64,000 nucleotides of DNA from Pseudomonadota bacterium (lineage in GTDB: Bacteria > Pseudomonadota > Alphaproteobacteria > JBCCHK01), in NCBI GenBank assembly GCA_039028835.1, contig JBCCHK010000004.1, forward strand, positions 2,497 to 66,496, written 5' to 3'. A program made the translations under genes and the position numbers. Each line of letters opens with the position of its first letter. The stretch's first letter is position 1. Below are positions 5,611 to 50,383 of the stretch, one piece after another. The notes under the pieces are model-generated. The model had not been told where the DNA came from, ran no database searches, and saw only the letters and a program-made list of their open reading frames with translations.

Positions 5611-8548
5611 TGGTCGGCGCGGGGCTGGTCACCATCTCCAGCCGCGCTGCGCAGTATTTGAATTCGGGAATCTTGCCGTGGGGATCGAGCTCGGCAATGG
5701 TGAGCAGGTTGGCCGCCGCCTCGGCAAAAGCAAAGGGAATAAACAAACAGCCCATCGAGACATGGCGATCGGGCACGGCCGCAAGCTCGATGGTGCCGCG
5801 GCGGGTGCGCACCCGCACCGGCGTACCGGCGGTCAATCCCGCGCGCGCTAATTCCCGCGGGTGGAGATAGACCGCCGGGCTGGGTTCGAGTTGGTCTAGC
5901 ACCTTGGCGCGGCGGGTCATGGCGCCGGTGTGCCAGTGCTCTAGCAGGCGGCCAGTGGATAGAATCAGGGGATAGTCCGGGTCTGGCGGCTCGGCGGGGC
6001 CGGACAAGGTAGCCGGCACCAAGGTGCCGCGGCCATCATCGGTGGGGAATCCGTCGGCAAAGATGATCTCCTGGCCAGGATCGTCTTCGTGCTCGACGGG
6101 GTAGGTGACGGACCCCTCGCGGCTGACCCGGTCCCACGACAGCCCCTTGATCGATGGCATGGTCTCGCGCATTTCGGCAAAGATATCTGCCACGGTTTCA
6201 TAGCCCCAATCGAGCCCGAGGCGTTGCGCCATTTGACCAATGATCCACCAGTCGGGCTTGGCCTCGCCTGGCAAGGGCAGGACTTGCCGTCCTCGCTGGA
6301 CTCGCCGGTCGGTGTTGGTAAAGGTGCCGTCTTTCTCGAAGAAGGATGAGGCGGGCAGGATCACGTCGGCGTAGCTCGCTGTTTCAGTGATAAACAGGTC
6401 TTGCACGACGAGATGCTCAAGGCGCGAAAGGCCGGTGCGGGCGTGGGTGAGGTCCGGGTCCGACATGGCCGGATTCTCCCCTTGGATATACATGCCCTTG
6501 ATCGTGCCATCAAAGGCGGCATTGATGATCTCCACCACGGTCAAGCCGGGGCTTGGGGCCAGTTCGGTCTGCCAGAAATCGGCAAAGTGATCGCGCACCG
6601 AGTCCTGGATGACCTTTTGATAGTCCGGCAGCATCATTGGAATGAGGCCGGCATCAGAGGCCCCTTGGACGTTGTTTTGTCCGCGCAGGGGATGCAGGCC
6701 CGTGCCCGCCCGGCCAACCTGCCCGGTGATGAGCGCAAGATCGATCAGACAGCGGGCGTTATCGGTGCCGTGGGCGTGTTGGCTGATGCCCATGCCCCAG
6801 AAGATCATCGCCGCCTTGGCGCCGCCAAACAGGCGAGCGGCGGCCCTCAGGGTTTCGGCGTCGATCCCGCACAGGGGTGCCATGGCCTCAGGCGAGGTCT
6901 GAGCGGTGGCCTTATGCAGGGCGTCGATGCCGTGGGTGTGGGCACGGATGTAGGCCTCATCAGCCAGGCCCTCGCGCAGAATCACGTGGATCATGGCATT
7001 GAGCAGGGCCACGTCAGTGCCCGGCTTAAAGCGCATGTCAATGTGTGCGTGACGGCTGAGTTCTTGGCCGCGGGGATCGGCGAGAATCAATTTCGCGCCG
7101 CGCTTAAGGGCATTTTTGAGGAAGGTTGCGGCGACCGGGTGATTGACGGTGGGGTTCGCGCCGATCAGCAACATCACATCAGAATCTTTACAGGCGCGTA
7201 CCGGGGCAGTGACCGCGCCCGAGCCGATAGTCTCCATCAGTGCGGCGACCGAGGCGGCGTGGCACAACCGGGTGCAATGATCCACGTTGTGGGTGCCAAA
7301 GCCGGTGCGCACGAGTTTTTGAAACAGGTAGGCTTCTTCGTTCGATCCCTTGGCCGAGCCAAAGCCAGCCAGGGCGTCCGCGCCGTGCGCGGCTTTGATC
7401 TGGGCAAGGCCGTTGCCGGCGCGATCCAGCGCCTCCTCCCAGCTGGCCGCGCGAAAGCGGGCGCGGATTTCTTCTGGGTCGCTAGGCAATTCAGGGGTCT
7501 TGGGGGCGTCATCTCGGCGAATGAGGGGAGTGGTGAGCCGATCCGGGTGCGCGCCGTAGTCAAAACCAAAGCGCCCTTTAACGCACAGACGGCTTTGGTT
7601 GGCCGGGCCGGGCCGGCCTTCGGCGGCGATGATCTGATCGTCCTTGACGTGATAGCGCACCTGGCAGCCCACCCCGCAGTAGGGGCACAGGGTATCGACG
7701 TGCCGGTCGGGGGTGGCGGTGCGCTTGTGGGTCGTCTCATCCAGCACACTGGCGGGCATCAGCGCGCCGGTGGGGCAAGCCTGGACACACTCGCCGCAGG
7801 CAACGCAGGTGGAGTGCCCCATAGGATCGTCCATGTCAAAAACGATCTTGCTGCCCTGCCCGCGATGGGCCATGCCGATCACGTCGTTGACCTGTTCTTC
7901 GCGGCAAGCCCTCACGCACAACCCGCAGTGGATGCAGGCATCCAGTTGCACGGCCATGGCCGGGTGGGAAAAGTCTGGCGCGGGAGGGGCGGGATCGCCA
8001 CTTATGTTATGGCCGTTATGGCTGGTGCCGCCACTCGCGCTCTTATTTGCGTCATGGTCTGCGCCGTTGGTTTTATGAGCGGCGGGAAAGCGGCTTTCGG
8101 TGACGTTGAGTTTGCTTGCGGTGCGTAGAAGTTTGTTGGTGGGATCGTGGGGGGCGCGGGGTTGATCGGCGAGCAGGAGCTCGGCCACCAGTTCGCGGGC
8201 GCGGCGCGGGCGGCTTGATTGGGTGTCGATGACCATGCCGGGCGCGGCGGGACGGACGCAGGAGGCAACCAGGGCCCGCTCGCCTTCGATGGCGACCATG
8301 CAGATGCGGCAGTTGCCATCGGGGCGGTAGCCGGGTTTGTGGCATAGGTGGGGCAGTTCGTCGCCGGTGCGGCGCACGAGCTCCCAGAGGGTCTCCCCGG
8401 GTTGTATAGTGACGGTCTCCCCGTTCAGGGTGAGGGTTTGCTCGGGCGTTTGCGGGGGCGTTTGAGCGTCCGCTTGGGCGTCGTCTGCGGTCTTGTCTTG
8501 GGGGGCTGTTTTTTTGGCGGTAGGCATGGCGGGTGGGGTCTTGCGCAC
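5600..8548 (-). CDS. Formate dehydrogenase alpha subunit (molybdopterin oxidoreductase with N-terminal 2Fe-2S and 4Fe-4S domains), Cys-type
   Basis: Cys clusters CHKPGYRPDGNCRIC, CIHCGLCVRAC, CVACGECVQACP and CPYCGVGC, plus the catalytic-region motif HCTRLCHAASV with Cys, not TGA. The start could be GTG 8548 or ATG 8527. Confidence 0.9.
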   Translation of the reverse strand: MRKTPPAMPTAKKTAPQDKTADDAQADAQTPPQTPEQTLTLNGETVTIQPGETLWELVRRTGDELPHLCHKPGYRPDGNCRICMVAIEGERALVASCVRPAAPGMVIDTQSSRPRRARELVAELLLADQPRAPHDPTNKLLRTASKLNVTESRFPAAHKTNGADHDANKSASGGTSHNGHNISGDPAPPAPDFSHPAMAVQLDACIHCGLCVRACREEQVNDVIGMAHRGQGSKIVFDMDDPMGHSTCVACGECVQACPTGALMPASVLDETTHKRTATPDRHVDTLCPYCGVGCQVRYHVKDDQIIAAEGRPGPANQSRLCVKGRFGFDYGAHPDRLTTPLIRRDDAPKTPELPSDPEEIRARFRAASWEEALDRAGNGLAQIKAAHGADALAGFGSAKGSNEEAYLFQKLVRTGFGTHNVDHCTRLCHAASVAALMETIGSGAVTAPVRACKDSDVMLLIGANPTVNHPVAATFLKNALKRGAKLILADPRGQELSRHAHIDMRFKPGTDVALLNAMIHVILREGLADEAYIRAHTHGIDALHKATAQTSPEAMAPLCGIDAETLRAAARLFGGAKAAMIFWGMGISQHAHGTDNARCLIDLALITGQVGRAGTGLHPLRGQNNVQGASDAGLIPMMLPDYQKVIQDSVRDHFADFWQTELAPSPGLTVVEIINAAFDGTIKGMYIQGENPAMSDPDLTHARTGLSRLEHLVVQDLFITETASYADVILPASSFFEKDGTFTNTDRRVQRGRQVLPLPGEAKPDWWIIGQMAQRLGLDWGYETVADIFAEMRETMPSIKGLSWDRVSREGSVTYPVEHEDDPGQEIIFADGFPTDDGRGTLVPATLSGPAEPPDPDYPLILSTGRLLEHWHTGAMTRRAKVLDQLEPSPAVYLHPRELARAGLTAGTPVRVRTRRGTIELAAVPDRHVSMGCLFIPFAFAEAAANLLTIAELDPHGKIPEFKYCAARLEMVTSPAPTTNA

Positions 8549-8689
8549 GGTGTGGCGGGTTGATGAGTGGTGCTATCTCACAGCTTAGCAAAACCGCCCT
8601 TTGGGTGTAAGGGGGCAGATAAAGAGGCGAGGGGCACTTTGCTCTCTCACTCTTAACGTGATCCTGCTTTAAGCAGATTGGGGATCACT

Positions 8690-9535
8690 GGCAAAAATAT
8701 GAAATTATGAATCAGAAATTTTATCAATTTTTTCTATGAGGATTTTCTCTATGAGATCAGTATAGAAATTTTGAATATTGCTTAATGATCCCTTCCGAAT
8801 TTTTACCCTTACGGCTGACCCTTTTACTTTATATTCTTTTTCAAGAAAGTCTATGTCATATTTTGCGAGATTCAAGGATCGTCCGCCGTGAACGATAGCA
8901 TTTCGTCTGCAATATATCCAGTCGGCGTAGCCGATGACTGAAGTGGGGATAGATTTATCTTGTTTCTTAAACTGTTCCGTAATTACACCTTTGTTGGGAT
9001 TAACCCGAGATGTCTGATAGATTTTGGGATTAATGTCTAATGACTCGAAAAGTTTCTTAAGTTTTGTGCTATGCCTTTTTCTTAAAACATTGGTACGCAA
9101 GGTGTTTTTCAAATTTTCCAAGACTCTCTGCTTTGGATCCTCATCTGAGAGAAAAATTTCATATAGTTGCTTTTCTGAGAGAGTTTCTTTTTCGTGTTTT
9201 TGTAAAAGTTCTTCTTGTAAAATCGGTGAGATTTCGACTCTATCGAGAAGAATCTTATCGATGAGATGATCGAAACGATCTACAGCACTTGCGAAAATAA
9301 GTTTGGTTATATGAATTCGTTTTTTATCTGGGGAAATACCCTCTACTATACCCGAGGCATCCCCTATATCTTCTTTCAGAAAATTCTTGAATTCCTCAAT
9401 ATGAGAGTTTGTTTCTTTTGGCATGCGAAAAATCGCCCGTGAGTGAGAATCAATTTTTGAACGTATCCCCCAGATATCGAAAGATAGACCCGAATACACG
9501 CCCTTTGATAATGTTTGCCATTGTAGCATCCGAGT
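8690..9535. other. Compositionally atypical AT-rich segment (hand counts of three 60-nt lines give 25-35% GC, against about 60% in the flanks)
   Basis: Direct base counting of lines 8701, 8761 and 8821. The composition shifts abruptly at both ends. I saw no flanking tRNA, integrase or clear direct repeats. Confidence 0.65.
8705..9529 (-). CDS. Hypothetical protein with a C-terminal HEPN-like Rx4H motif (CRRNAIVHGG)
   Basis: It is the only long ORF in the AT-rich segment and is Lys/Glu/Ile/Leu-rich, so predicted helical. The RNAIVH motif is encoded at 8888-8905. An alternative start is Met36 (MPKETNSH). Confidence 0.55.
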   Translation of the reverse strand: MLQWQTLSKGVYSGLSFDIWGIRSKIDSHSRAIFRMPKETNSHIEEFKNFLKEDIGDASGIVEGISPDKKRIHITKLIFASAVDRFDHLIDKILLDRVEISPILQEELLQKHEKETLSEKQLYEIFLSDEDPKQRVLENLKNTLRTNVLRKRHSTKLKKLFESLDINPKIYQTSRVNPNKGVITEQFKKQDKSIPTSVIGYADWIYCRRNAIVHGGRSLNLAKYDIDFLEKEYKVKGSAVRVKIRKGSLSNIQNFYTDLIEKILIEKIDKISDS

Positions 9536-9750
9536 GACCTGCTTGCTTAGGCACTTTTCCCAAATATCCGGTCACGCGTCGTTTCGCCTGCAAGAAGAAT
9601 CCTTTGGCAAGAATCTTCGGGACGACTCAAAAAAAGGCTTCAAAAAGCACCCTTAGGGACTCCACATCAGCCCATAGGTCATCTACTGTAACGGGGCCTT
9701 GATCGGGGCCTTCGATTAAGGGCTGTTTTCTTCAACCACGAGCCCGAGTC

Positions 9751-10911
9751 ATGACAAACCTCATCGGTCTTGCCTTGATCGTTTTGCTCAGCGTGGGGGG
9801 GCTGCACGTGCGCGCCCGCGCCCTTCCGGGAATCACCACCGGCACCCTGACGGCCTACGGGATGGCTCTGACCGTGATCCCCGCGGCCCTCGCTGCAGTG
9901 GCCGTCTATGCCCTTGATATCCCTGGGTTTGTCATCATCGCCCTAGCGGCTGTGGGCGGCGCAGCGGCCCTCTTGAGCCTTCCCTCCACCGCCGCGTTGC
10001 GCAAACGCATCGACCGCATCGCCATCGTCTTACTCGCCGCCTGTGCTGGGCTTGCCATCATCATCACCCTGGGTATTGTTCTCTCACTGTTGTTTGAGGC
10101 TTTGCGCTTTTTTTCCTTTGTTGCGCCGTGGGATTTTTTCTTCGGCACCGTGTGGGACCCGCGCTTTTCTTCCTCGGGGGACATGACCGAGGTCGGCCAG
10201 TTTGGCTTGTTGCCGCTCTTGTGGGGGACGCTTTATATCTCGGTGGTGGCCTTGTTGTTGGCCGTGCCGATTGGCCTTTTGTGTGCGCTTTACTTGGCCG
10301 AGTACGCCACCTACTGGCAACGGGCAACCCTCAAGCCTGCGCTGGAGGTGCTTGCGGGGATTCCCACCGTGGTCTATGGCTTTTTTGCCCTGGTGGTGGT
10401 GGGCCCCGCCATCAGCAATGCAGGCGATGCTCTCTTGGGCATTCAGGCCAGCGCTTCTAATGCCCTGGCCGCCGGGCTGGTGCTCGGGGTCATGCTGATT
10501 CCTTTCGTCTCGTCTTTGAGCGATGATATGCTGGTCTCGGTGCCGCGTAGCATGCGCGATGGCGCACTCGCACTAGGGGCCACCCGCGGTGAGGCCTTAA
10601 GCCAGGTCATCTTGCCGGCCGCCGCGCCGGGCATTGCCGCAGGGATTTTGCTCGCCGCCTCCCGCGCCGTGGGCGAGACCATGATCGTCGTCATGGCGGC
10701 GGGAATCGTTGCGAGCATCGATCTCAATCCCTTTGCGTCTATGACCACGATCACGGTCAAGATCGTCCATCAGCTGACCGGCGATCAGGTCTTTAACAGC
10801 CCCCAATCGTTGGTTGCTTTTGCGCTCGGGCTCACCTTGTTTGTCATGACTTTGGCGATGAACGTGATCGCCCTGCAGGTCGTGCGAAAGCATCGGCGCC
10901 ACCGTGAATAG
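9751..10911 (+). CDS. pstC: Phosphate ABC transporter permease PstC
   Basis: Multi-TM permease with the PstC-type extended N-terminus, followed by pstA and pstB. The 8-bp overlap with pstA suggests coupling. Confidence 0.88.
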   Translation: MTNLIGLALIVLLSVGGLHVRARALPGITTGTLTAYGMALTVIPAALAAVAVYALDIPGFVIIALAAVGGAAALLSLPSTAALRKRIDRIAIVLLAACAGLAIIITLGIVLSLLFEALRFFSFVAPWDFFFGTVWDPRFSSSGDMTEVGQFGLLPLLWGTLYISVVALLLAVPIGLLCALYLAEYATYWQRATLKPALEVLAGIPTVVYGFFALVVVGPAISNAGDALLGIQASASNALAAGLVLGVMLIPFVSSLSDDMLVSVPRSMRDGALALGATRGEALSQVILPAAAPGIAAGILLAASRAVGETMIVVMAAGIVASIDLNPFASMTTITVKIVHQLTGDQVFNSPQSLVAFALGLTLFVMTLAMNVIALQVVRKHRRHRE

Positions 10912-12226
10912 CCCATCCCCCCCGCCTGCGCCAGCGCAGACCGCAATCACCGCGGCCCAAACGGCGCGCATCGCACAAAAGCGTCATGCGCGCAACACGT
11001 GGCTGCGCCGTTGCGGGCTTGCCGGTATTCTCTTGAGCATCTCGTTGATCGTCATCCTGTTCGGCGCGGTGTTGACGATTGGCCTGAGTGCCTTTTGGCA
11101 GACGCGCATCTTGCTCGAGCTCGATCTGTCCATCGAGCGCATCGATCCCGATCAGACCGGCGATGCGCAGATCATCAGCAAAGCGAATTATCGCGCCATT
11201 GTACAAGAAGCCATCGTCGAGAAGGCGCAGCAGGTCACCGGCGCACTCAGCCGCCAGGACCGGCGGGCGATTCGCGCGCTGGTCTCTAAAATCGCTCCCT
11301 ACCTCGTGCGTGACCAGGTGCTGGACAATCGCGCGCTCATCGGCACCCGGGCGGCGTTGTGGCTGCCGGCCAACAATGACGTGGATGCGTGGGTCAAGGG
11401 CAAGATTCGCCGAGATATAGAAGAATCACGCCGCCCGATCAACGCCCTGCAAGCGCGGGTGATCGACGATTTGATGGCGACGGGACGACTGGATCGCTTT
11501 TTCAATACGGACTTTTTTACCCGCGCGGCCTCCAGCTATCCTGAGGTCTCGGGCCTCGCTTCCGCGATGGTTGGCTCGCTGATGATGGTTTTGATCGTAG
11601 TGGCCCTCGCCCTGCCGCTGGGGGTTGCCGCGGCAATTTATTTAGAGGAGTTTGCCCGCCCCTCGCGCTGGGTGAGTTTGATAGAAATCAACATCAACAA
11701 CCTCGCCGCCGTGCCGTCGATTGTCTTTGGTGTCCTAGGTTTGGCGGTGTTTATTAACTGGTTTCACTTGCCGCGCTCTACGCCGATTGTCGGCGGGCTG
11801 GTGCTCACGCTGATGACCCTGCCGACGATCATCATCGCCGCGCGCGCGGCCCTGCAGGCTGTGCCTCATTCGATTCGGCAAGCGGCCTTTGGTCTGGGCG
11901 CCTCGAAGGTGCAAACCGTGTTCCATCACGTCTTGCCCGTCGCGATCCCCGGAATTATCACCGGGCTGATTATCGGCATCACCCAAGCGGTGGGAGAAAC
12001 CGCACCGCTGATTATGATCGGCATGGCCGCCTTTATCCCTGAAGCGAGTTTTGACCCCCTCTCGCCGGCCACCGCTTTGCCGGTGCAGGTCTATATGCTG
12101 GCCGGATTGCCCGGGCGCGGGTATACCGAACTGGCGGGCGCGACGATTATCTTGTTGCTGGTCTTGGTCTTGAGTCTCAATAGCTTGGCGGCATTCCTGC
12201 GTCATCGTTTTCAAAAGAGGCTGTAG
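10904..12226 (+). CDS. pstA: Phosphate ABC transporter permease PstA (long form with a large periplasmic loop)
   Basis: Permease core IYLEEFARPSRWVSLIEININNLAAVPSIVFG. It abuts the pstB start codon. Confidence 0.88.
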   Translation: MNSPSPPPAPAQTAITAAQTARIAQKRHARNTWLRRCGLAGILLSISLIVILFGAVLTIGLSAFWQTRILLELDLSIERIDPDQTGDAQIISKANYRAIVQEAIVEKAQQVTGALSRQDRRAIRALVSKIAPYLVRDQVLDNRALIGTRAALWLPANNDVDAWVKGKIRRDIEESRRPINALQARVIDDLMATGRLDRFFNTDFFTRAASSYPEVSGLASAMVGSLMMVLIVVALALPLGVAAAIYLEEFARPSRWVSLIEININNLAAVPSIVFGVLGLAVFINWFHLPRSTPIVGGLVLTLMTLPTIIIAARAALQAVPHSIRQAAFGLGASKVQTVFHHVLPVAIPGIITGLIIGITQAVGETAPLIMIGMAAFIPEASFDPLSPATALPVQVYMLAGLPGRGYTELAGATIILLLVLVLSLNSLAAFLRHRFQKRL

Positions 12227-13018
12227 ATGAACGCCGCTCGATCAAACAACCCCAAAGACGGCATCGTAAAAATGAGCACCCACGACGTGAGTGTTTATTA
12301 TGGTGACAAGCTCGCCTTGAAAAACGTTTCATTGCTCGTCAAGAATAGCGAAGTGCTGTCTTTAATCGGCCCTTCGGGGTGCGGCAAGTCGACCTTTTTG
12401 CGCTGTTTGAATCGGATGAACGACACGATCTTAAGCTGCCGGGTCACCGGGGTTGTGACCTTAGATGGTGAGGATGTTTACCAGCCATCGATGGATATCG
12501 TCAACCTGCGCCGCCGGGTGGGCATGGTGTTTCAGCGGCCCAATCCCTTTCCCAAATCTATCTATGACAACGTTGCGTACGGCCCGCGCATTCACGGCAT
12601 GAGCCGCAACCGCGATGAGCTCGATGGGATTGTCGAGCAAAGCTTGCAATCGGCGGGTTTGTGGGACGAGGTGAGCGATCGCCTGACCGCCCCGGCTACC
12701 GATCTATCCGGCGGCCAACAGCAACGGCTGTGCATTGCCCGCGCCATTGCCCCCAACCCTGAGGTCATCTTGATGGATGAGCCGTGCTCGGCGCTCGATC
12801 CGATTGCCACTGCGCACGTCGAAAACCTGATAGAAAAACTGCGAGAGACCTATGCGATTGTCATCGTAACCCATAACATGCAACAAGCCGCGCGTGTCAG
12901 TCAGCAGACCGCCTTTTTTCATCTGGGTGAGATGGTCGAGTGTCGCAAAACCAGCAATCTGTTTACCACGCCTGAGGATAAACGCACTCAAGGATACATT
13001 ACAGGCCGTTATGGTTAG
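12227..13018 (+). CDS. pstB: Phosphate ABC transporter ATP-binding protein PstB
   Basis: Walker [10 protein letters not shown], signature [14 protein letters not shown], Walker [12 protein letters not shown], and a PstB-typical C-terminal end ([10 protein letters not shown]). Confidence 0.95.
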
Positions 13019-13020
13019 CA

Positions 13021-13080
13021 TTTTTTCTATTATCATTTTTCTATTATCATTCTTTCTATTTTTTCTATTTTCTATCATCC
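13021..13080. promoter_or_regulatory. Array of five direct TTCTAT words (CTAT at 13027, 13041, 13056, 13065, 13072), including a TTTTTCTATTATCA duplication, in the pstB-tkt spacer
   Basis: Read directly. The region is almost pure A/T and lies 25-85 bp upstream of the tkt start. Its function is unknown. Confidence 0.5.
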
Positions 13081-13104
13081 CTATAGTATAAGGATATCAA
13101 CGTT

Positions 13105-15150
13105 TTGTCTGCCGCTCCCAAAGATCGCCTCAAAAAAGACCACGCTAAGACCAGCCCCCTTGCCAACGCTCTACGCATGCTCAGCGTAGACGCGGTGCAG
13201 GCGGCAAACGCCGGCCACCCGGGCATGCCCATGGGCATGGCCGATGTGGCAACCGTATTGTTCGAGCGTTTTCTACGCTTTGACCCGCTTAATCCCACCT
13301 GGCCTGATCGAGATCGGTTTATTCTTTCCGCCGGTCATGGCTCGATGCTGCTGTATAGCCTGTTGCACCTGACGGGCTATCAGGCGATCACCCTTGAGGA
13401 CATCAAAAACTTTCGTCAGCTTGGCTCGATCTGCGCTGGGCATCCCGAATATGACCCTAACGCTGGAATAGAAATCACCACCGGCCCCCTAGGCCAGGGC
13501 TTGGCCTCGGCGGTGGGGATGGCCCTCGCCGAGCGCATGCTTCATGCCCGGGTCGGGGATGGATTGGTGGACCATCGCACCTTTGTCATCGCCGGGGACG
13601 GGGACTTGATGGAAGGGATCAGCCACGAGGCCGCTTCGCTCGCCGGTCACTTGGGCCTAGGGCGGCTCATCGTGCTATTTGATGATAATCGCATTTCCAT
13701 CGACGGCGCGACAAACCTTACGGTGAGCGATGACACCCAAGCGCGCATGGCCGCCTATGGCTGGGATGTACAGGCGATCGATGGCCATGACCCGGTAGCC
13801 ATCGAGCGCGCCATTGCATCGGCTTTGCACGCCCAAAACCGCCCCTCGATCATCTGTTGTCGCACCACCATCGGCTTTGGTGCCGATCAAAAGGCAGGCA
13901 CCGCCGCGGCCCATGGCGCTCCCTTGGGCGAGGAAGAGGTCGCCGCCGCACGGCGCAACTTGGACTGGCCCCATCCGCCCTTTGTGATCCCGCAAGATAT
14001 CCGCGATGCGTGGCTTGCCATCGGCCAACGGGGGCAAGCGGCCTATCAGGCCTGGCATAAGCGTTACGCCGCCGCGGACCCCGCGCATAAGGCGTGGCTG
14101 GAGGGGCCGGGCGGCGGTGATGACCTGGTCGCAGGGCTGGGCTTGGAAGACTTAGCCCAAGAGATTGCATCCCAGACCATGGCCACCCGCCAGGCCTCAG
14201 GGAAGGTGCTGGCCCATGTGAACTTGCCGGCCTTGGTTGGCGGCTCCGCCGATCTCACGCCGTCTAACAACACCCGCCACGCCGATGCAGTGGACGTAAC
14301 GCGCGATGACTATGCTGGGGATTACGTGCGCTTTGGGGTGCGTGAGCACGCCATGGCTGCCATGGCCAGCGGCCTTGCCTTACACGGCGCGTTCATTCCT
14401 TTCGTCGGCACCTTTCTCACCTTCAGCGACTATGCTCGTCCGGCCATTCGCCTGGCCGCGTTGATGCAGGTGCGGGTGATTTACGTCATGACCCACGATG
14501 GGATCGGCTTGGGAGAAGACGGCCCCACCCACCAGCCCATCGAGCACTTAGAAAGCCTGCGCCTGATTCCCGGGGTGCGGGTGTTTCGTCCGGCCGATGC
14601 CTTTGAGACCATCCAGGCTTGGGCAATGGCCCTGGCCTATCAGGGACCGAGCATCCTCGCGCTTTCGCGCCAGGGATTGCCGCCTCTCCCGCGTCACGAT
14701 GGGGCGGGCGCACGGCGCGGCGCCTACCTGGTGCGCACGCCGAGCGGGGCAAGCGGGGCGAAGGGAGCGGGCTCGGCGGGAAGCGCGCTCGCGCCACGCC
14801 GGGTGACGATTCTGGCCACCGGCTCTGAGGTCGCTCTTGCCCTGGCCGCCGCCGAGACCCTAGAGGCCGAAGGGATCGGCGTAGCGGTCGTATCAGTCCT
14901 GTGCCGGGAGGTCTTCGCCGAACAAGAGCCGGCCTATCGCCGCGCAGTGCTGGGCGAGGGGCCGCGCGCCGCGATTGAAGCCGGACGGCCCGAGGGCTGG
15001 GCTGGGCTGGTCGGTGAGGACGGTCTTCTTATCGGTATGAATACCTTTGGCGCATCCGCTCCGGCGAAGGCCCTGTATGAGCACTATGGCCTTACGGGTC
15101 CGGCCCTGGCGCAACGTTTGCGGACGTGGCTTGGCGAGCTGCGCCGCTGA
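13105..15150 (+). CDS. tkt: Transketolase (TTG start in the ORF track)
   Basis: Motifs SVDAVQAANAGHPGMPMGMADV, the TPP motif GDGDLMEGISHEA, and MTHDGIGLGEDGPTHQP. It contains a Gly/Ala/Ser-rich insertion (PSGASGAKGAGSAGSALAP). Confidence 0.95.
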   Translation: MSAAPKDRLKKDHAKTSPLANALRMLSVDAVQAANAGHPGMPMGMADVATVLFERFLRFDPLNPTWPDRDRFILSAGHGSMLLYSLLHLTGYQAITLEDIKNFRQLGSICAGHPEYDPNAGIEITTGPLGQGLASAVGMALAERMLHARVGDGLVDHRTFVIAGDGDLMEGISHEAASLAGHLGLGRLIVLFDDNRISIDGATNLTVSDDTQARMAAYGWDVQAIDGHDPVAIERAIASALHAQNRPSIICCRTTIGFGADQKAGTAAAHGAPLGEEEVAAARRNLDWPHPPFVIPQDIRDAWLAIGQRGQAAYQAWHKRYAAADPAHKAWLEGPGGGDDLVAGLGLEDLAQEIASQTMATRQASGKVLAHVNLPALVGGSADLTPSNNTRHADAVDVTRDDYAGDYVRFGVREHAMAAMASGLALHGAFIPFVGTFLTFSDYARPAIRLAALMQVRVIYVMTHDGIGLGEDGPTHQPIEHLESLRLIPGVRVFRPADAFETIQAWAMALAYQGPSILALSRQGLPPLPRHDGAGARRGAYLVRTPSGASGAKGAGSAGSALAPRRVTILATGSEVALALAAAETLEAEGIGVAVVSVLCREVFAEQEPAYRRAVLGEGPRAAIEAGRPEGWAGLVGEDGLLIGMNTFGASAPAKALYEHYGLTGPALAQRLRTWLGELRR

Positions 15151-48022: not shown

Positions 48023-48634
48023 TTACTTTCGCACGCCGAAGGTATTGGGGGCGGTGCGGGTAAAGACCGTTCCCTTGCGCACGTAGGTTGTGAGCGATGC
48101 CACGATGGAGCGACGTTGTTTTGCCGTATCGGGCTTTCTAAGGCTCTTGATAATATCAGAGATATGCATGGGGCCTCGGTTTTTCTTGATCGCCTCATAG
48201 ATATCGTTCATCGTCGAGCCACTCCGCAGGCCTGACGCGGTCTTTACCGCCGCTTTTTTTCTTGCTGCGGTTTTCCGGGTGGTTTTTTTGGCCGCGGCTT
48301 TCCGGGTAGTTTTTTTGGCCGTAGTTTTCCCGGTAGTTTTTTTCGCGGCGGTTTTCCGAGTGGTTTTTTTGGCCGCGGTTTTCCCGGTGGTTTTTTTTGC
48401 GGCGGTTTTCCGAGTGGTTTTTTTGGCCGCAGTTTTCCCGGTGGTTTTTTTCACGGCGGTTTTCCGGGTGGTTTTTTTCGCGGCGGTTTTGGTTGCCTTT
48501 TTCGGCTTGGAAAGTGTTTTGAGCACTTTGGTGAGTTCTTTCTTCGCCGCCTGTTGACGTTTTACCAGGCGGTTAAGAGCTTTGATGGCGTCATCACATT
48601 TTTCAATAGACGCCTTAATTTGACGAGCGGACAT
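48023..48634 (-). CDS. Lysine-rich histone-H1-like repeat protein with a C-terminal winged-helix-like domain
   Basis: About ten repeats of AAKKTT(R/G)KT in the centre, an N-terminal coiled segment, and a C-terminal globular segment MNDIYEAIKKNRGPMHISDIIKSL... Confidence 0.7.
   Translation of the reverse strand: MSARQIKASIEKCDDAIKALNRLVKRQQAAKKELTKVLKTLSKPKKATKTAAKKTTRKTAVKKTTGKTAAKKTTRKTAAKKTTGKTAAKKTTRKTAAKKTTGKTTAKKTTRKAAAKKTTRKTAARKKAAVKTASGLRSGSTMNDIYEAIKKNRGPMHISDIIKSLRKPDTAKQRRSIVASLTTYVRKGTVFTRTAPNTFGVRK
48254..48499. repeat. Coding tandem repeat with a 24-bp unit (48-bp super-unit alternating R/G), about 10 copies
   Basis: On the plus strand the DNA reads GGTTTTTTTGGCCGCGGTTTTCCSGGT-like units. 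It translates to KTAAKKTT(R/G). Confidence 0.85.
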
Positions 48635-48785
48635 AGATTCCTCTGGGATGTTGTGAAGGGGGGTTGGGTTGGATGAGGGCGATGACGCCTAAGAGGTTTA
48701 TCAAAGTCATAGGCTTGAAAATCATCGATGAAGATATTGGCATGGTGCGGGATTGAATTCCTTTGCTGAGCTATCTTACCCATCG

Positions 48786-48827
48786 AGTCATGGCTATTCA
48801 GTCATGGTTATCGAGTTATGGCCACCG
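48786..48827. repeat. Degenerate 14-bp tandem repeat x3 (AGTCATGGCTATTC / AGTCATGGTTATCG / AGTTATGGCCACCG)
   Basis: Read directly. It lies about 150-190 bp upstream of the H1-like gene start. Confidence 0.7.
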
Positions 48828-48838
48828 ATTGTAGGGGG

Positions 48839-48852
48839 CTGTCTATAGACAG
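48839..48852. repeat. Perfect 14-bp palindrome CTGTCTATAGACAG
   Basis: Read directly. It could be an operator-type dyad. Confidence 0.7.
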
Positions 48853-49510
48853 TCCTGACATTGAGGATCGATGGTACAGGGGATAGAGCGCAATCACTTG
48901 GCAAAGAGTTAAAAAGATCACGGTTAGGTGATCGGTGAGCCAACGATGGTATATCGTTAACCGGTCTTTCCCGCGACCAAAGCTTTTATACCTATAGATG
49001 TAAACCTCTTAAACAAAATGACCTCACCAAAAAAGGACTCTTGAGATCAACGAGCGAAACAAATCCGCCAGACCAACTCAAGAGTAGATGTGGTGGGCTT
49101 GATAGTTCTAAAATTAGCTATATCCCTATCGATCTATCTTGAACATAGAATAGGTCTGATAGACTTGGTCTCATGACTATAAAGCCTGGATTTACTATAC
49201 CGATGTGTGGTGTTTTGATAATGGCGGGAAAGGGTTTTTGCCTTTTATAGGTGAGTTTTTCCACACAAAATCGATAATTTTATAGATTTTTTTCTAAAAT
49301 GACTCGCCAAAAGGATATCTTGTCGTGTTTTTTGTGCAGAGCATCGAATCGATAGCGCAAGAAGGAACGCCAACAAGAAGGGCAAGCAGGGGATATATAA
49401 GTGCTTTTGACGGTGATGTTATATCAGGCAAGCACAAGTGACAGTCGTAGCATCACATCCTCGATCATCGATATCTCACATCGATGCCGATCCATGGTGC
49501 TAAAAACGGT

Positions 49511-50383
49511 TTAACCAGACTCGAGCCAGATCTGACAACAGCGTTTGGCCATCGCCCGGACCCGGGCGATATAATTCGTGCGCACGCCGCTCGCAAGCGA
49601 CGTGCGCGCATCGATCAGGTTAAACAAATGGCTGGCCTTGAGGCATTGCTCGTAGGCGGGAATGGCAAGATCCTTGTCCAGGCAGATTTGGGCTTGGTTT
49701 TCTGCATCATCAAAATGACGCCGCAAGAGCGCCAGATCGCTATGCTCAAAACTATAGGTCGATTGTTCTTTTTCTGCGCGCCAGAAAATATCACGATAGG
49801 TTTTTGAGTTCGGCGCACCTGGCGGGTTATAGGGGATATCAAAAACATTATCCAGGCCAAAAATATGCAACGCGAGACGTTCCAGGCCATAGGTTAATTC
49901 CACAGGAATACGCTTGCAATCAAACCCGCCCATCTGCTGGAAATAGGTAAACTGCGTAATCTCCATGCCCTGGCACCAGACCTCCCACCCCAGACCTGCC
50001 GCCCCTAAGGTCGGGCTCTCCCAATCGTCTTCCACAAAGCGCACATCATTGGCTTGCTGGTCGATCCCTAACCTTGCCAGACTCGCAAGGTAGGTGTCTT
50101 GAATGTCCTCAGGTGAGGGGCGGATAAAGACCTGGTATTGCAGATGCTGATACAGACGATTGGGATTATCGCCGTAACGGCCATCGGCCGGTCGCCGCGA
50201 GGGCTGAAGATAAGCGCAAGCCCAATGATCGTCCGGCCCCAAGGCGCGTAACGTCGTTGCCGGATGAAACGTGCCCGCGCCGACCTCCATATCATAAGGG
50301 GTGATGAGCGCACACCCTTGCGCGCCCCAAAAACTGTTCAGGCGCGTGATGATATCTTGCAAACACGTGGGACGAGAGGTCAT
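49511..50383 (-). CDS. glyQ: Glycine-tRNA ligase alpha subunit
   Basis: Highly conserved sequence LQDIITRLNSFWGAQGCALITPYDMEVGAGTFHP...YQYQVFIRPSP. Confidence 0.96.
   Translation of the reverse strand: MTSRPTCLQDIITRLNSFWGAQGCALITPYDMEVGAGTFHPATTLRALGPDDHWACAYLQPSRRPADGRYGDNPNRLYQHLQYQVFIRPSPEDIQDTYLASLARLGIDQQANDVRFVEDDWESPTLGAAGLGWEVWCQGMEITQFTYFQQMGGFDCKRIPVELTYGLERLALHIFGLDNVFDIPYNPPGAPNSKTYRDIFWRAEKEQSTYSFEHSDLALLRRHFDDAENQAQICLDKDLAIPAYEQCLKASHLFNLIDARTSLASGVRTNYIARVRAMAKRCCQIWLESG

Follow-up and report, generated by a model that had tools for sequence, protein, structure and literature searches.

A 64,000-nucleotide (nt) stretch of an alphaproteobacterial contig (JBCCHK010000004.1), hereafter referred to as the window, carries a single AT-rich gene flanked by fdhA on the left and by pstC of a phosphate-transporter operon on the right. 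What protein this isolated gene encodes, and how it came to lie there, are the questions that the locus raises. Here we report that the gene is foreign, intact and partner-less, and that its product keeps every residue that is invariant in its family. Our preferred reading, which we hold with somewhat better than even confidence, is a horizontally acquired solo HEPN-like ribonuclease (RNase) of a rare and unnamed family, serving as a toxin or defence gene.

A foreign gene of a rare family

The GC content drops to 0.33–0.40 at positions 8600–9500, compared with 0.60–0.72 on the left (fdhA) and 0.61–0.70 on the right (inside pstC), when measured over 200 nt. The 720-nt segment with the lowest GC in the 64 kilobases (kb) starts at 8691 (0.349 versus a mean of 0.589 with a standard deviation of 0.046, about 5 standard deviations low). 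The gene itself has a GC of 0.35, and its GC at third codon positions (GC3) is 0.33, compared with 0.66–0.76 for fdhA, pstC, pstA, pstB and tkt. Windowed GC and GC3 uphold the sharp drop noted in a preliminary description made from the sequence alone, and place the lowest stretch of the window here; the value of 25–35% given there is slightly low as an average, but is borne out by some 40-nt segments, in which GC reaches 0.17–0.25.

The block contains one open reading frame (ORF), which is intact and encodes 274 amino acids (aa) on the minus strand at 8705–9529, as previously described. The start assigned to it, the first Met, is less likely than Met36. The upstream GC step at 9400–9424 coincides with the ATG of Met36 (nt 9424), the homologues all align from around residue 40 of the 274-aa ORF, and the public annotation gives the gene as 239 aa; thus, the gene probably spans 8705–9424 and starts at Met36. 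The 35-codon extension has no counterpart in any homologue, nor anything alike in the family loci, and probably represents a 5′ leader rather than coding sequence. Residues are numbered here according to the 239-aa form, in which R174 and H179 correspond to R209 and H214 of the 274-aa ORF. The gene and its main elements are as follows.

8705–9424, minus strand: HEPN-like gene in its probable extent (239 aa, counted from Met36; coordinates include the stop codon)
9425–9529, minus strand: 35 in-frame codons upstream, reaching back to the first ATG (GC 0.43, intergenic-like)
8888–8905, minus strand: codons of R-N-A-I-V-H, the Rx4H motif (R174 and H179; R and H invariant)
9257–9271, minus strand: codons of D52 to D56 in the VDRFDxxxD motif (both Asp invariant; second long helix)
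9062–9073, minus strand: codons of H118 to K121, motif RHSxKL (conserved polar residues in the insert between core helices 2 and 3)

The protein had been called an orphan, which it is not. An exhaustive HMMER scan of 1.84 billion representatives (clusters at 50% identity) returned 76 relatives, 58 of them below 1e-10, which are at most 45% identical to the window protein and mostly 220–260 aa long. A further 80 loci came from a pattern scan of JGI metagenomes; with other fetched loci included, they yield 67 distinct protein copies. Ten clusters that we looked up have one or two members each, all unnamed; nine derive only from environmental or raw-read assemblies (JGI/IMG, ENA and Logan) and one from an NCBI record. 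Among 5.8 billion proteins, a word-indexed search recovered nothing but the HEPN-like protein itself, and searches with the window protein against Pfam, NCBIfam, PADLOC and PDB sequences returned nothing, with no defence family of PADLOC-DB 2.0 matched at E ≤ 10. The 76 relatives, the 67 metagenome copies and the small unnamed clusters establish that the family is real, very rare and unannotated. The only other contig that carries the gene is a 4.9-kb Logan contig (SRR22824298), which is 100% identical to positions 6783–11717.

In 42 of 44 loci the flanks are richer in GC than the family gene, and the one-ORF AT-rich block of the window recurs in locus L149, where GC is 0.21–0.37 inside surroundings of 0.70–0.76, and likewise in L134. 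The extreme composition, together with the same low-GC, one-ORF block in unrelated high-GC hosts, identifies the gene as a compositionally foreign, horizontally acquired one-gene element, in line with the origin first proposed for it. Nor is it kept in synteny among distant relatives: in 80 pstC loci of other species, neither the HEPN-like gene nor fdhA lies nearby. The nearest PstC among the 5.8 billion public proteins is just 58–65% identical (from Reyranella/Vineibacter-like bacteria, other Alphaproteobacteria and Halomonadaceae), indicating that the host lineage is unusually isolated.

How the gene entered is less apparent from its borders. As already reported for this locus, there is no integrase, tRNA gene or direct repeat at the block, and no MNT-type antitoxin or second gene beside it; the whole 64-kb window lacks a tRNA gene, and the repeats that flank the gene are short, none of them meaningful or significant. 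The block could itself be a mobile cassette, either an integron cassette or a miniature element bounded by terminal inverted repeats, with the protein as its cargo. Its anatomy would suit such an element, with one ORF in about 0.75–0.85 kb and no mobility gene, as in L149 and L134, and with a hairpin just past the stop codon; moreover, one HEPN family is known from integron cassettes (PMC3710099). The borders themselves speak otherwise. Pairs of attC-like core sites occur at control frequency (2/63 downstream versus 2/63 in upstream controls) and are absent from the window, and we rejected the integron cassette on this ground. Flanking inverted repeats are at chance level, with 5% of loci at p ≤ 0.05; the 20-nt inverted pair 8679–8698/9453–9472 in the window does not surpass shuffled sequence (p = 0.125) and the family as a whole shows no signal, so that an element bounded by terminal inverted repeats was rejected as well. 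No flank DNA is common to the loci. The cassette explanation is thus largely refuted, and we give it hardly any weight.

Invariant residues and relation to HEPN proteins

The preliminary description rested on an R-N-A-I-V-H sequence at nt 8888–8905, which we confirmed, and singled out its Arg and His as the key residues. Both are invariant in the family, in 40/40 members of a first alignment and in 66/66 of a second set, and an Asn directly follows the Arg in 63 of the 66 (N175 here). The 40-member alignment has seven invariant residues, D52, D56, K121, G146, R174, H179 and Y221, all of which the window protein retains. D52 and D56 are invariant in both sets; K121 is invariant and H118 present in at least 90% of the first alignment, and they occur in 66/66 and 65/66 members of the second, respectively. 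The invariant Arg and His are enclosed in a hallmark motif, GYADWLYxRRNxIVHG; NRxHLQKL, VDRFDxxxD, RHSxKL and PRVN..G are nearly invariant as well. At the DNA level, the window gene resembles other family loci only in approximately 50 nt around the R…H motif (about 80%). An Rx4-6H motif arises by chance in 63% of shuffles of the protein, and R[NDH]x3H in 4.4%; the motif alone is therefore not beyond chance, and its meaning derives from its invariance across the family.

An AlphaFold2 model of the 239-aa form, built with the 40-sequence alignment (mean predicted local distance difference test (pLDDT) score 95, predicted template-modelling (pTM) score 0.90), is all-helical but for one small hairpin. 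This agrees with the all-helical fold expected from a Lys/Glu/Ile/Leu-rich composition (K+E+I+L account for 42% of the residues). In the model, helices 3–28 and 33–62 (containing D52 and D56) form a first hairpin; residues 63–162 make up an insert of approximately 100 residues, consisting of short helices and the hairpin; helix 163–179 ends exactly at H179 and is followed by Gly-Gly and a loop; and helix 211–238 closes the bundle. Published HEPN domains carry the motif at the end of helix-3, with an insert between helices 2 and 3, a conserved acidic residue in helix-2 (typically in E-x3-[KR]) that is spatially close to the motif, and usually N, D or H after the motif Arg (PMC3710099). The predicted layout, mapped to the HEPN core through the secondary-structure string of the model, matches this description in the order of its elements: it has four core helices, with invariant Asp residues in the second, the insert after it and the Rx4H motif at the end of the third, and the family alignments place a polar Asn after the Arg.

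Profile searches point weakly in the same direction. When each of the 40 members was scanned against Pfam, 24 families were matched in total, and RiboL-PSP-HEPN (PF18735) was the sole one matched by more than two members (5/40). The best of these matches (member P0039, residues 28–217 against profile positions 36–181 of 191) has an E value of 1.7e-4. PF18737 (MAE_28990-like), PF18739 (Apea-like HEPN) and DUF4145 were matched by one member each (E 0.04–0.12, with PF18737 at 0.038). In structural searches with Foldseek, around ten of the top 50 PDB matches were HEPN toxin (HepT-type) chains, each individually insignificant. Among predicted viral structures in BFVD, the top match was an uncharacterised siphovirus protein (E 6e-3, TM-score 0.56) and the third a predicted phage MAE_28990/MAE_18760-like HEPN protein (probability 0.90, E 0.16, TM-scores 0.41/0.46). 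These sub-threshold matches converge, if weakly, on HEPN families. Taking anatomy and weak matches together, we consider it quite likely that the protein contains an HEPN-superfamily domain.

A number of results weigh against an HEPN RNase with a defensive role. No curated HEPN model reaches its threshold for any of the 40 members, the best PF18735 score being 22 bits against a gathering cutoff of 28.4, and neither the window protein nor the family consensus has an HEPN match in Pfam; the window protein has none to PF18735 at E ≤ 10. The protein falls short of formal membership in every individual Pfam HEPN family. The family profile found no HEPN chain among PDB sequences, and Foldseek found nothing significant in PDB (best E 0.5). 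The acidic motif in helix-2 is D-x3-D rather than the usual E-x3-[KR]. The window protein, which lies on a long branch, is alone among 66 in having Thr for the near-invariant Gln40, and has Ser for a near-invariant Asn; on account of these two substitutions it may be under relaxed constraint. Furthermore, searches of IMG/VR, PLSDB and INPHARED found no family member and there is no PHROG match, so that, with PADLOC also blank, the family has no direct link to phages or to defence systems already known.

An alternative is a helical protein that is not a nuclease, but binds a ligand or nucleic acid or has a regulatory function, with the R…H pair used for binding and the HEPN likeness superficial or non-catalytic. 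All HEPN matches are indeed sub-threshold, all-helical folds are poorly discriminated by fold searches, and the frequency of Rx4-6H in shuffles is as given above. Although non-catalytic HEPN domains exist, they have lost the motif according to the HEPN survey (PMC3710099), whereas the present family conserves R, N and H without exception or almost so, as it does D52, D56, H118 and K121, a pattern such as active sites usually show. Moreover, catalytic HEPN families are the only clan on which the weak matches recur. We regard a non-nuclease as unlikely.

Compared with known systems, the HEPN-like protein most resembles RiboL-PSP-HEPN, a bacterial family of distant kin to AbiD and AbiF (Anantharaman et al. 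2013, PMC3710099), in its size (an HEPN domain of about 190 aa with a large insert) and in keeping the catalytic Rx4H motif. It differs in being a single-domain protein of 239 aa without an endoRNase L-PSP fusion and in having its own invariant motifs (NRxHLQKL, VDRFDxxxD, RHSxKL and GYADWLY); neither ParB nor endoRNase L-PSP is among the neighbour Pfam families seen at least twice (the top 25 of 121). The resemblance to RiboL-PSP-HEPN put forward in the preliminary description survives as the best, sub-threshold, Pfam match. That to Abi_2 (AbiD, AbiD1 and AbiF; PF07751) does not, as 0/40 members match it at E ≤ 0.1. Abi_2 proteins, distant kin of RiboL-PSP-HEPN in the 2013 survey (PMC3710099), are likewise single-gene HEPN abortive-infection proteins, but the window gene has neither upstream RNA repeats nor a structured RNA. 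MAE_28990 genes are reported beside DNA methylases, as are some members of the present family; in contrast, the window copy has no methylase nearby, and there is neither a ParB nuclease nor a ParA/Soj partner, nor any of the MAE_18760 N-terminal fusion domains. HepT-MntA shares the Rx4H RNase motif in a helical toxin. However, no MNT nucleotidyltransferase gene adjoins the window gene or is found among the recurrent family neighbours, HepT is about 130–150 aa compared with 239 aa including a 100-aa insert, and the HepT motif reads H-x-Y where the present one reads H-G-G (RNAIVHGG).

A parallel in organisation is HepS ('HEPN Solo') of the Gifsy-1 prophage, a single abortive-infection HEPN protein with no partner or inhibitor gene, which is constitutively made as a closed tetramer and opened by a phage tail-tip protein to become an anticodon nuclease (PMC13043305). 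The window gene and its clade similarly consist of a single HEPN-motif gene without a conserved partner. Unlike HepS, which is prophage-borne, the family occurs in no phage, viral-contig or plasmid collection that we searched, and no phage genes lie near the window gene. No sequence or fold likeness between HepS and the window protein was detected, although HepS may not be in the PDB copy used. Since no homology was found, HepS serves here as an analogy of mechanism, not as evidence of membership.

Neighbourhoods, a partner clade and flanking DNA

The 148 ORFs that neighbour family genes in the 67 distinct loci fall into 121 Pfam families. The family therefore has no general partner, and its neighbourhoods are hypervariable. 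Recurrent neighbours include C5 methylases with NgoPII-type restriction enzymes, HsdM/N6 methylases, an ApaLI-type enzyme, ResIII helicases, MTES_1575 helicase-nucleases and serine recombinases, a theme of conflict or variable regions that are often rich in restriction-modification (R-M) genes. L082, for example, is a dense island that comprises two serine recombinases, an integrase, a type I R-M system, an SNF2 helicase and Vsr. A second recurrence is uvrB, which adjoins the family gene in four unrelated loci (L131, L134, L148 and L166), and in L087 uvrC lies two genes upstream; this adjacency may reflect a preferred insertion neighbourhood or coincidence.

The sole conserved neighbour is a protein of approximately 63 aa (MPILLGPFDPIKLIF...LSKG...EKEK) encoded immediately upstream, with a stop codon that overlaps the beginning of the HEPN-like gene. 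This protein matches nothing in Pfam and is a candidate for a new antitoxin or regulator. It is encoded at the following positions, among others.

L082, 9820–10020: partner of approximately 63 aa
L087, 5255–5446: partner of approximately 63 aa
L110, 2140–2361: partner of approximately 63 aa
L163, 2257–2466: partner of approximately 63 aa
L151, 5750–5932: partner of approximately 63 aa

The partner-bearing loci form a single clade. In L082–L084, an Xre-type helix-turn-helix (HTH) gene precedes the partner gene, and C5 DNA methylases lie beside the pair (at 11206–12942 in L082, and upstream of it in L110, L163 and L164). The last three loci also contain an NgoPII-type restriction enzyme, so that the pair rides there with a complete type II R-M system.

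The existence of this clade suggests an alternative in which the window gene is what is left of a two-gene module (small partner and HEPN-like protein) or of an R-M-linked cassette: a toxin now stranded or decaying, which was parted from its partner during transfer and persists as silent or non-functional cargo. The partner is conserved and translationally coupled where it occurs, the window protein lies on a long branch and is the sole member without Gln40, and neither a recognisable promoter nor a strong ribosome-binding site was seen. The distribution of the partner points the other way: it is confined to one clade, whereas the window protein belongs to a large partner-less clade of more than 40 distinct members in which it is never present. 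In the window, the partner profile is blank in all six frames of 8000–10500, and no small ORF or flank DNA is shared with other family loci; the ORF, moreover, is intact and keeps the seven invariant residues. We therefore judge a stranded toxin to be improbable. A partner remnant within the 35-codon extension, suggested by a shared 'LSKGV', was also rejected: the partner profile scores only about 1 bit in the six frames of that region, and the likeness is put down to chance.

The R-M theme also raises the explanation that the protein is a DNA-directed R-M component, either an unrecognised restriction endonuclease or a controller, which in the window lacks its methylase. DNA methyltransferases adjoin family genes in L082, L096, L110, L139, L151, L163 and L164, and the Xre-type HTH gene of L082–L084 stands where a controller would. 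However, the NgoPII-type enzyme beside the C5 methylase in L110, L163 and L164 means that the R-M system there is already complete; the window and most family loci have no methylase, and an unprotected restriction enzyme would be lethal; and the fold has no PD-(D/E)xK, HNH, GIY-YIG or phospholipase D (PLD) features. An unrecognised restriction endonuclease was rejected on the first two grounds, and an R-M role of any kind seems very unlikely.

The genes on either side are as first named. The fdhA product is the alpha subunit of formate dehydrogenase (TIGR01591, 708 bits versus a cutoff of 666), and PstC, PstA and PstB were likewise confirmed. Two non-coding intervals separate the HEPN-like gene from these neighbours.

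8587–8688, minus strand: two hairpins between the stop codon of the gene and the start of fdhA (fold z = −3.3)
9425–9750, no strand assigned: intergenic region from which the HEPN-like gene and pstC diverge (intermediate GC, 0.49)

One hairpin (8658–8688, GUGAUCC...GGAUCAC) lies just after the stop codon of the HEPN-like gene, and the other forms a terminator-like stem at 8597–8613, followed by a U-run on the minus strand. The minus-strand fold of 8549–8710 is more stable than expected (z = −3.3; 0/200 shuffles fold equally well), and the two hairpins probably insulate fdhA from read-through. Both divergent promoters presumably lie in 9425–9750, where the minus strand showed no sigma-70-like site. 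This region contains no conserved small ORF, tandem repeat or Rfam match, the RNA structure of the leader is unremarkable (z = −0.09), and no Rfam family reaches its gathering score anywhere in the 64 kb. An RNA antitoxin or guide (type III or AbiF-like) was rejected, as there is no tandem array, Rfam match, structured leader or conserved flank DNA.

Several other features of the window were recorded. There is no pstS upstream of pstC, pstA and pstB (9751–13018) and no PstS homologue in the entire 64 kb, whereas six relatives that we inspected have a PstS-like ORF directly upstream of pstC; the AT-rich gene and fdhA sit where pstS would be expected. PstC is 386 aa here versus about 459 aa in the relatives, with detectable similarity only from nt 10000. 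A short GC dip (0.38–0.42) at 12900–13200 covers the end of pstB and the pstB–tkt intergenic region. The second-lowest GC in the window (0.33–0.46) belongs to 48640–49510, an interval of about 870 nt devoid of ORFs of at least 50 aa and adjoined by glyQ at 49511–50383 on the minus strand. On its other side, 48023–48634 (minus strand) encodes a Lys/Thr/Ala-rich protein of 203 aa with around eight tandem KKTT(R/G)KTAA repeats and a globular C terminus, which is histone-H1-like or nucleoid-protein-like.

Proposed activity and meaning of the family

For a solo HEPN-like RNase, the model and the invariant residues suggest how it might work. The protein would be a metal-independent RNase whose catalytic centre comprises R174, N175 and H179, aided by D52 and D56, and the active site would probably form fully only between the two subunits of a homodimer, in the manner of other HEPN enzymes. 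By analogy with HepS, the protein may be weakly expressed or locked in an oligomer that inhibits itself; on a signal from a phage or from stress, it would be released to cut tRNA, rRNA or mRNA and thereby arrest growth, as in abortive infection or toxin action. The insert of approximately 100 residues, with its RHSxKL and PRVN..G motifs, would be the likely sensing or substrate-binding part.

A broader claim, which we hold to be doubtful, is that the window gene is the first known representative of a very rare family of solo HEPN-like enzymes that had escaped description, in which a bare one-ORF cassette of about 0.75 kb moves between distant bacteria under unconventional control, with the 63-aa partner found in a sister clade. 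Control might then consist in nucleoid proteins keeping the AT-rich gene silent until infection, or in auto-inhibition through the 100-residue insert, and the coupled 63-aa partner would define a new toxin–antitoxin or regulator pairing.

What is new here is the family; HEPN toxins in genomic conflict are already known, and the window copy is an ordinary instance of them that introduces no new principle. The absence of the family from Pfam, NCBIfam, PADLOC and PHROGs means that current annotation and defence-finding pipelines miss it, and the alignment and invariant residues would permit a family model to be built. The recurrent one-ORF AT-rich block in GC-rich genomes provides a clean case of single-gene movement without visible mobility machinery. 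If the protein is indeed an active solo HEPN RNase, it would add a new family to the few one-protein abortive-infection or toxin effectors, and would pose again the question of how a lone toxin stays harmless and what triggers it, which HepS has answered for one case.

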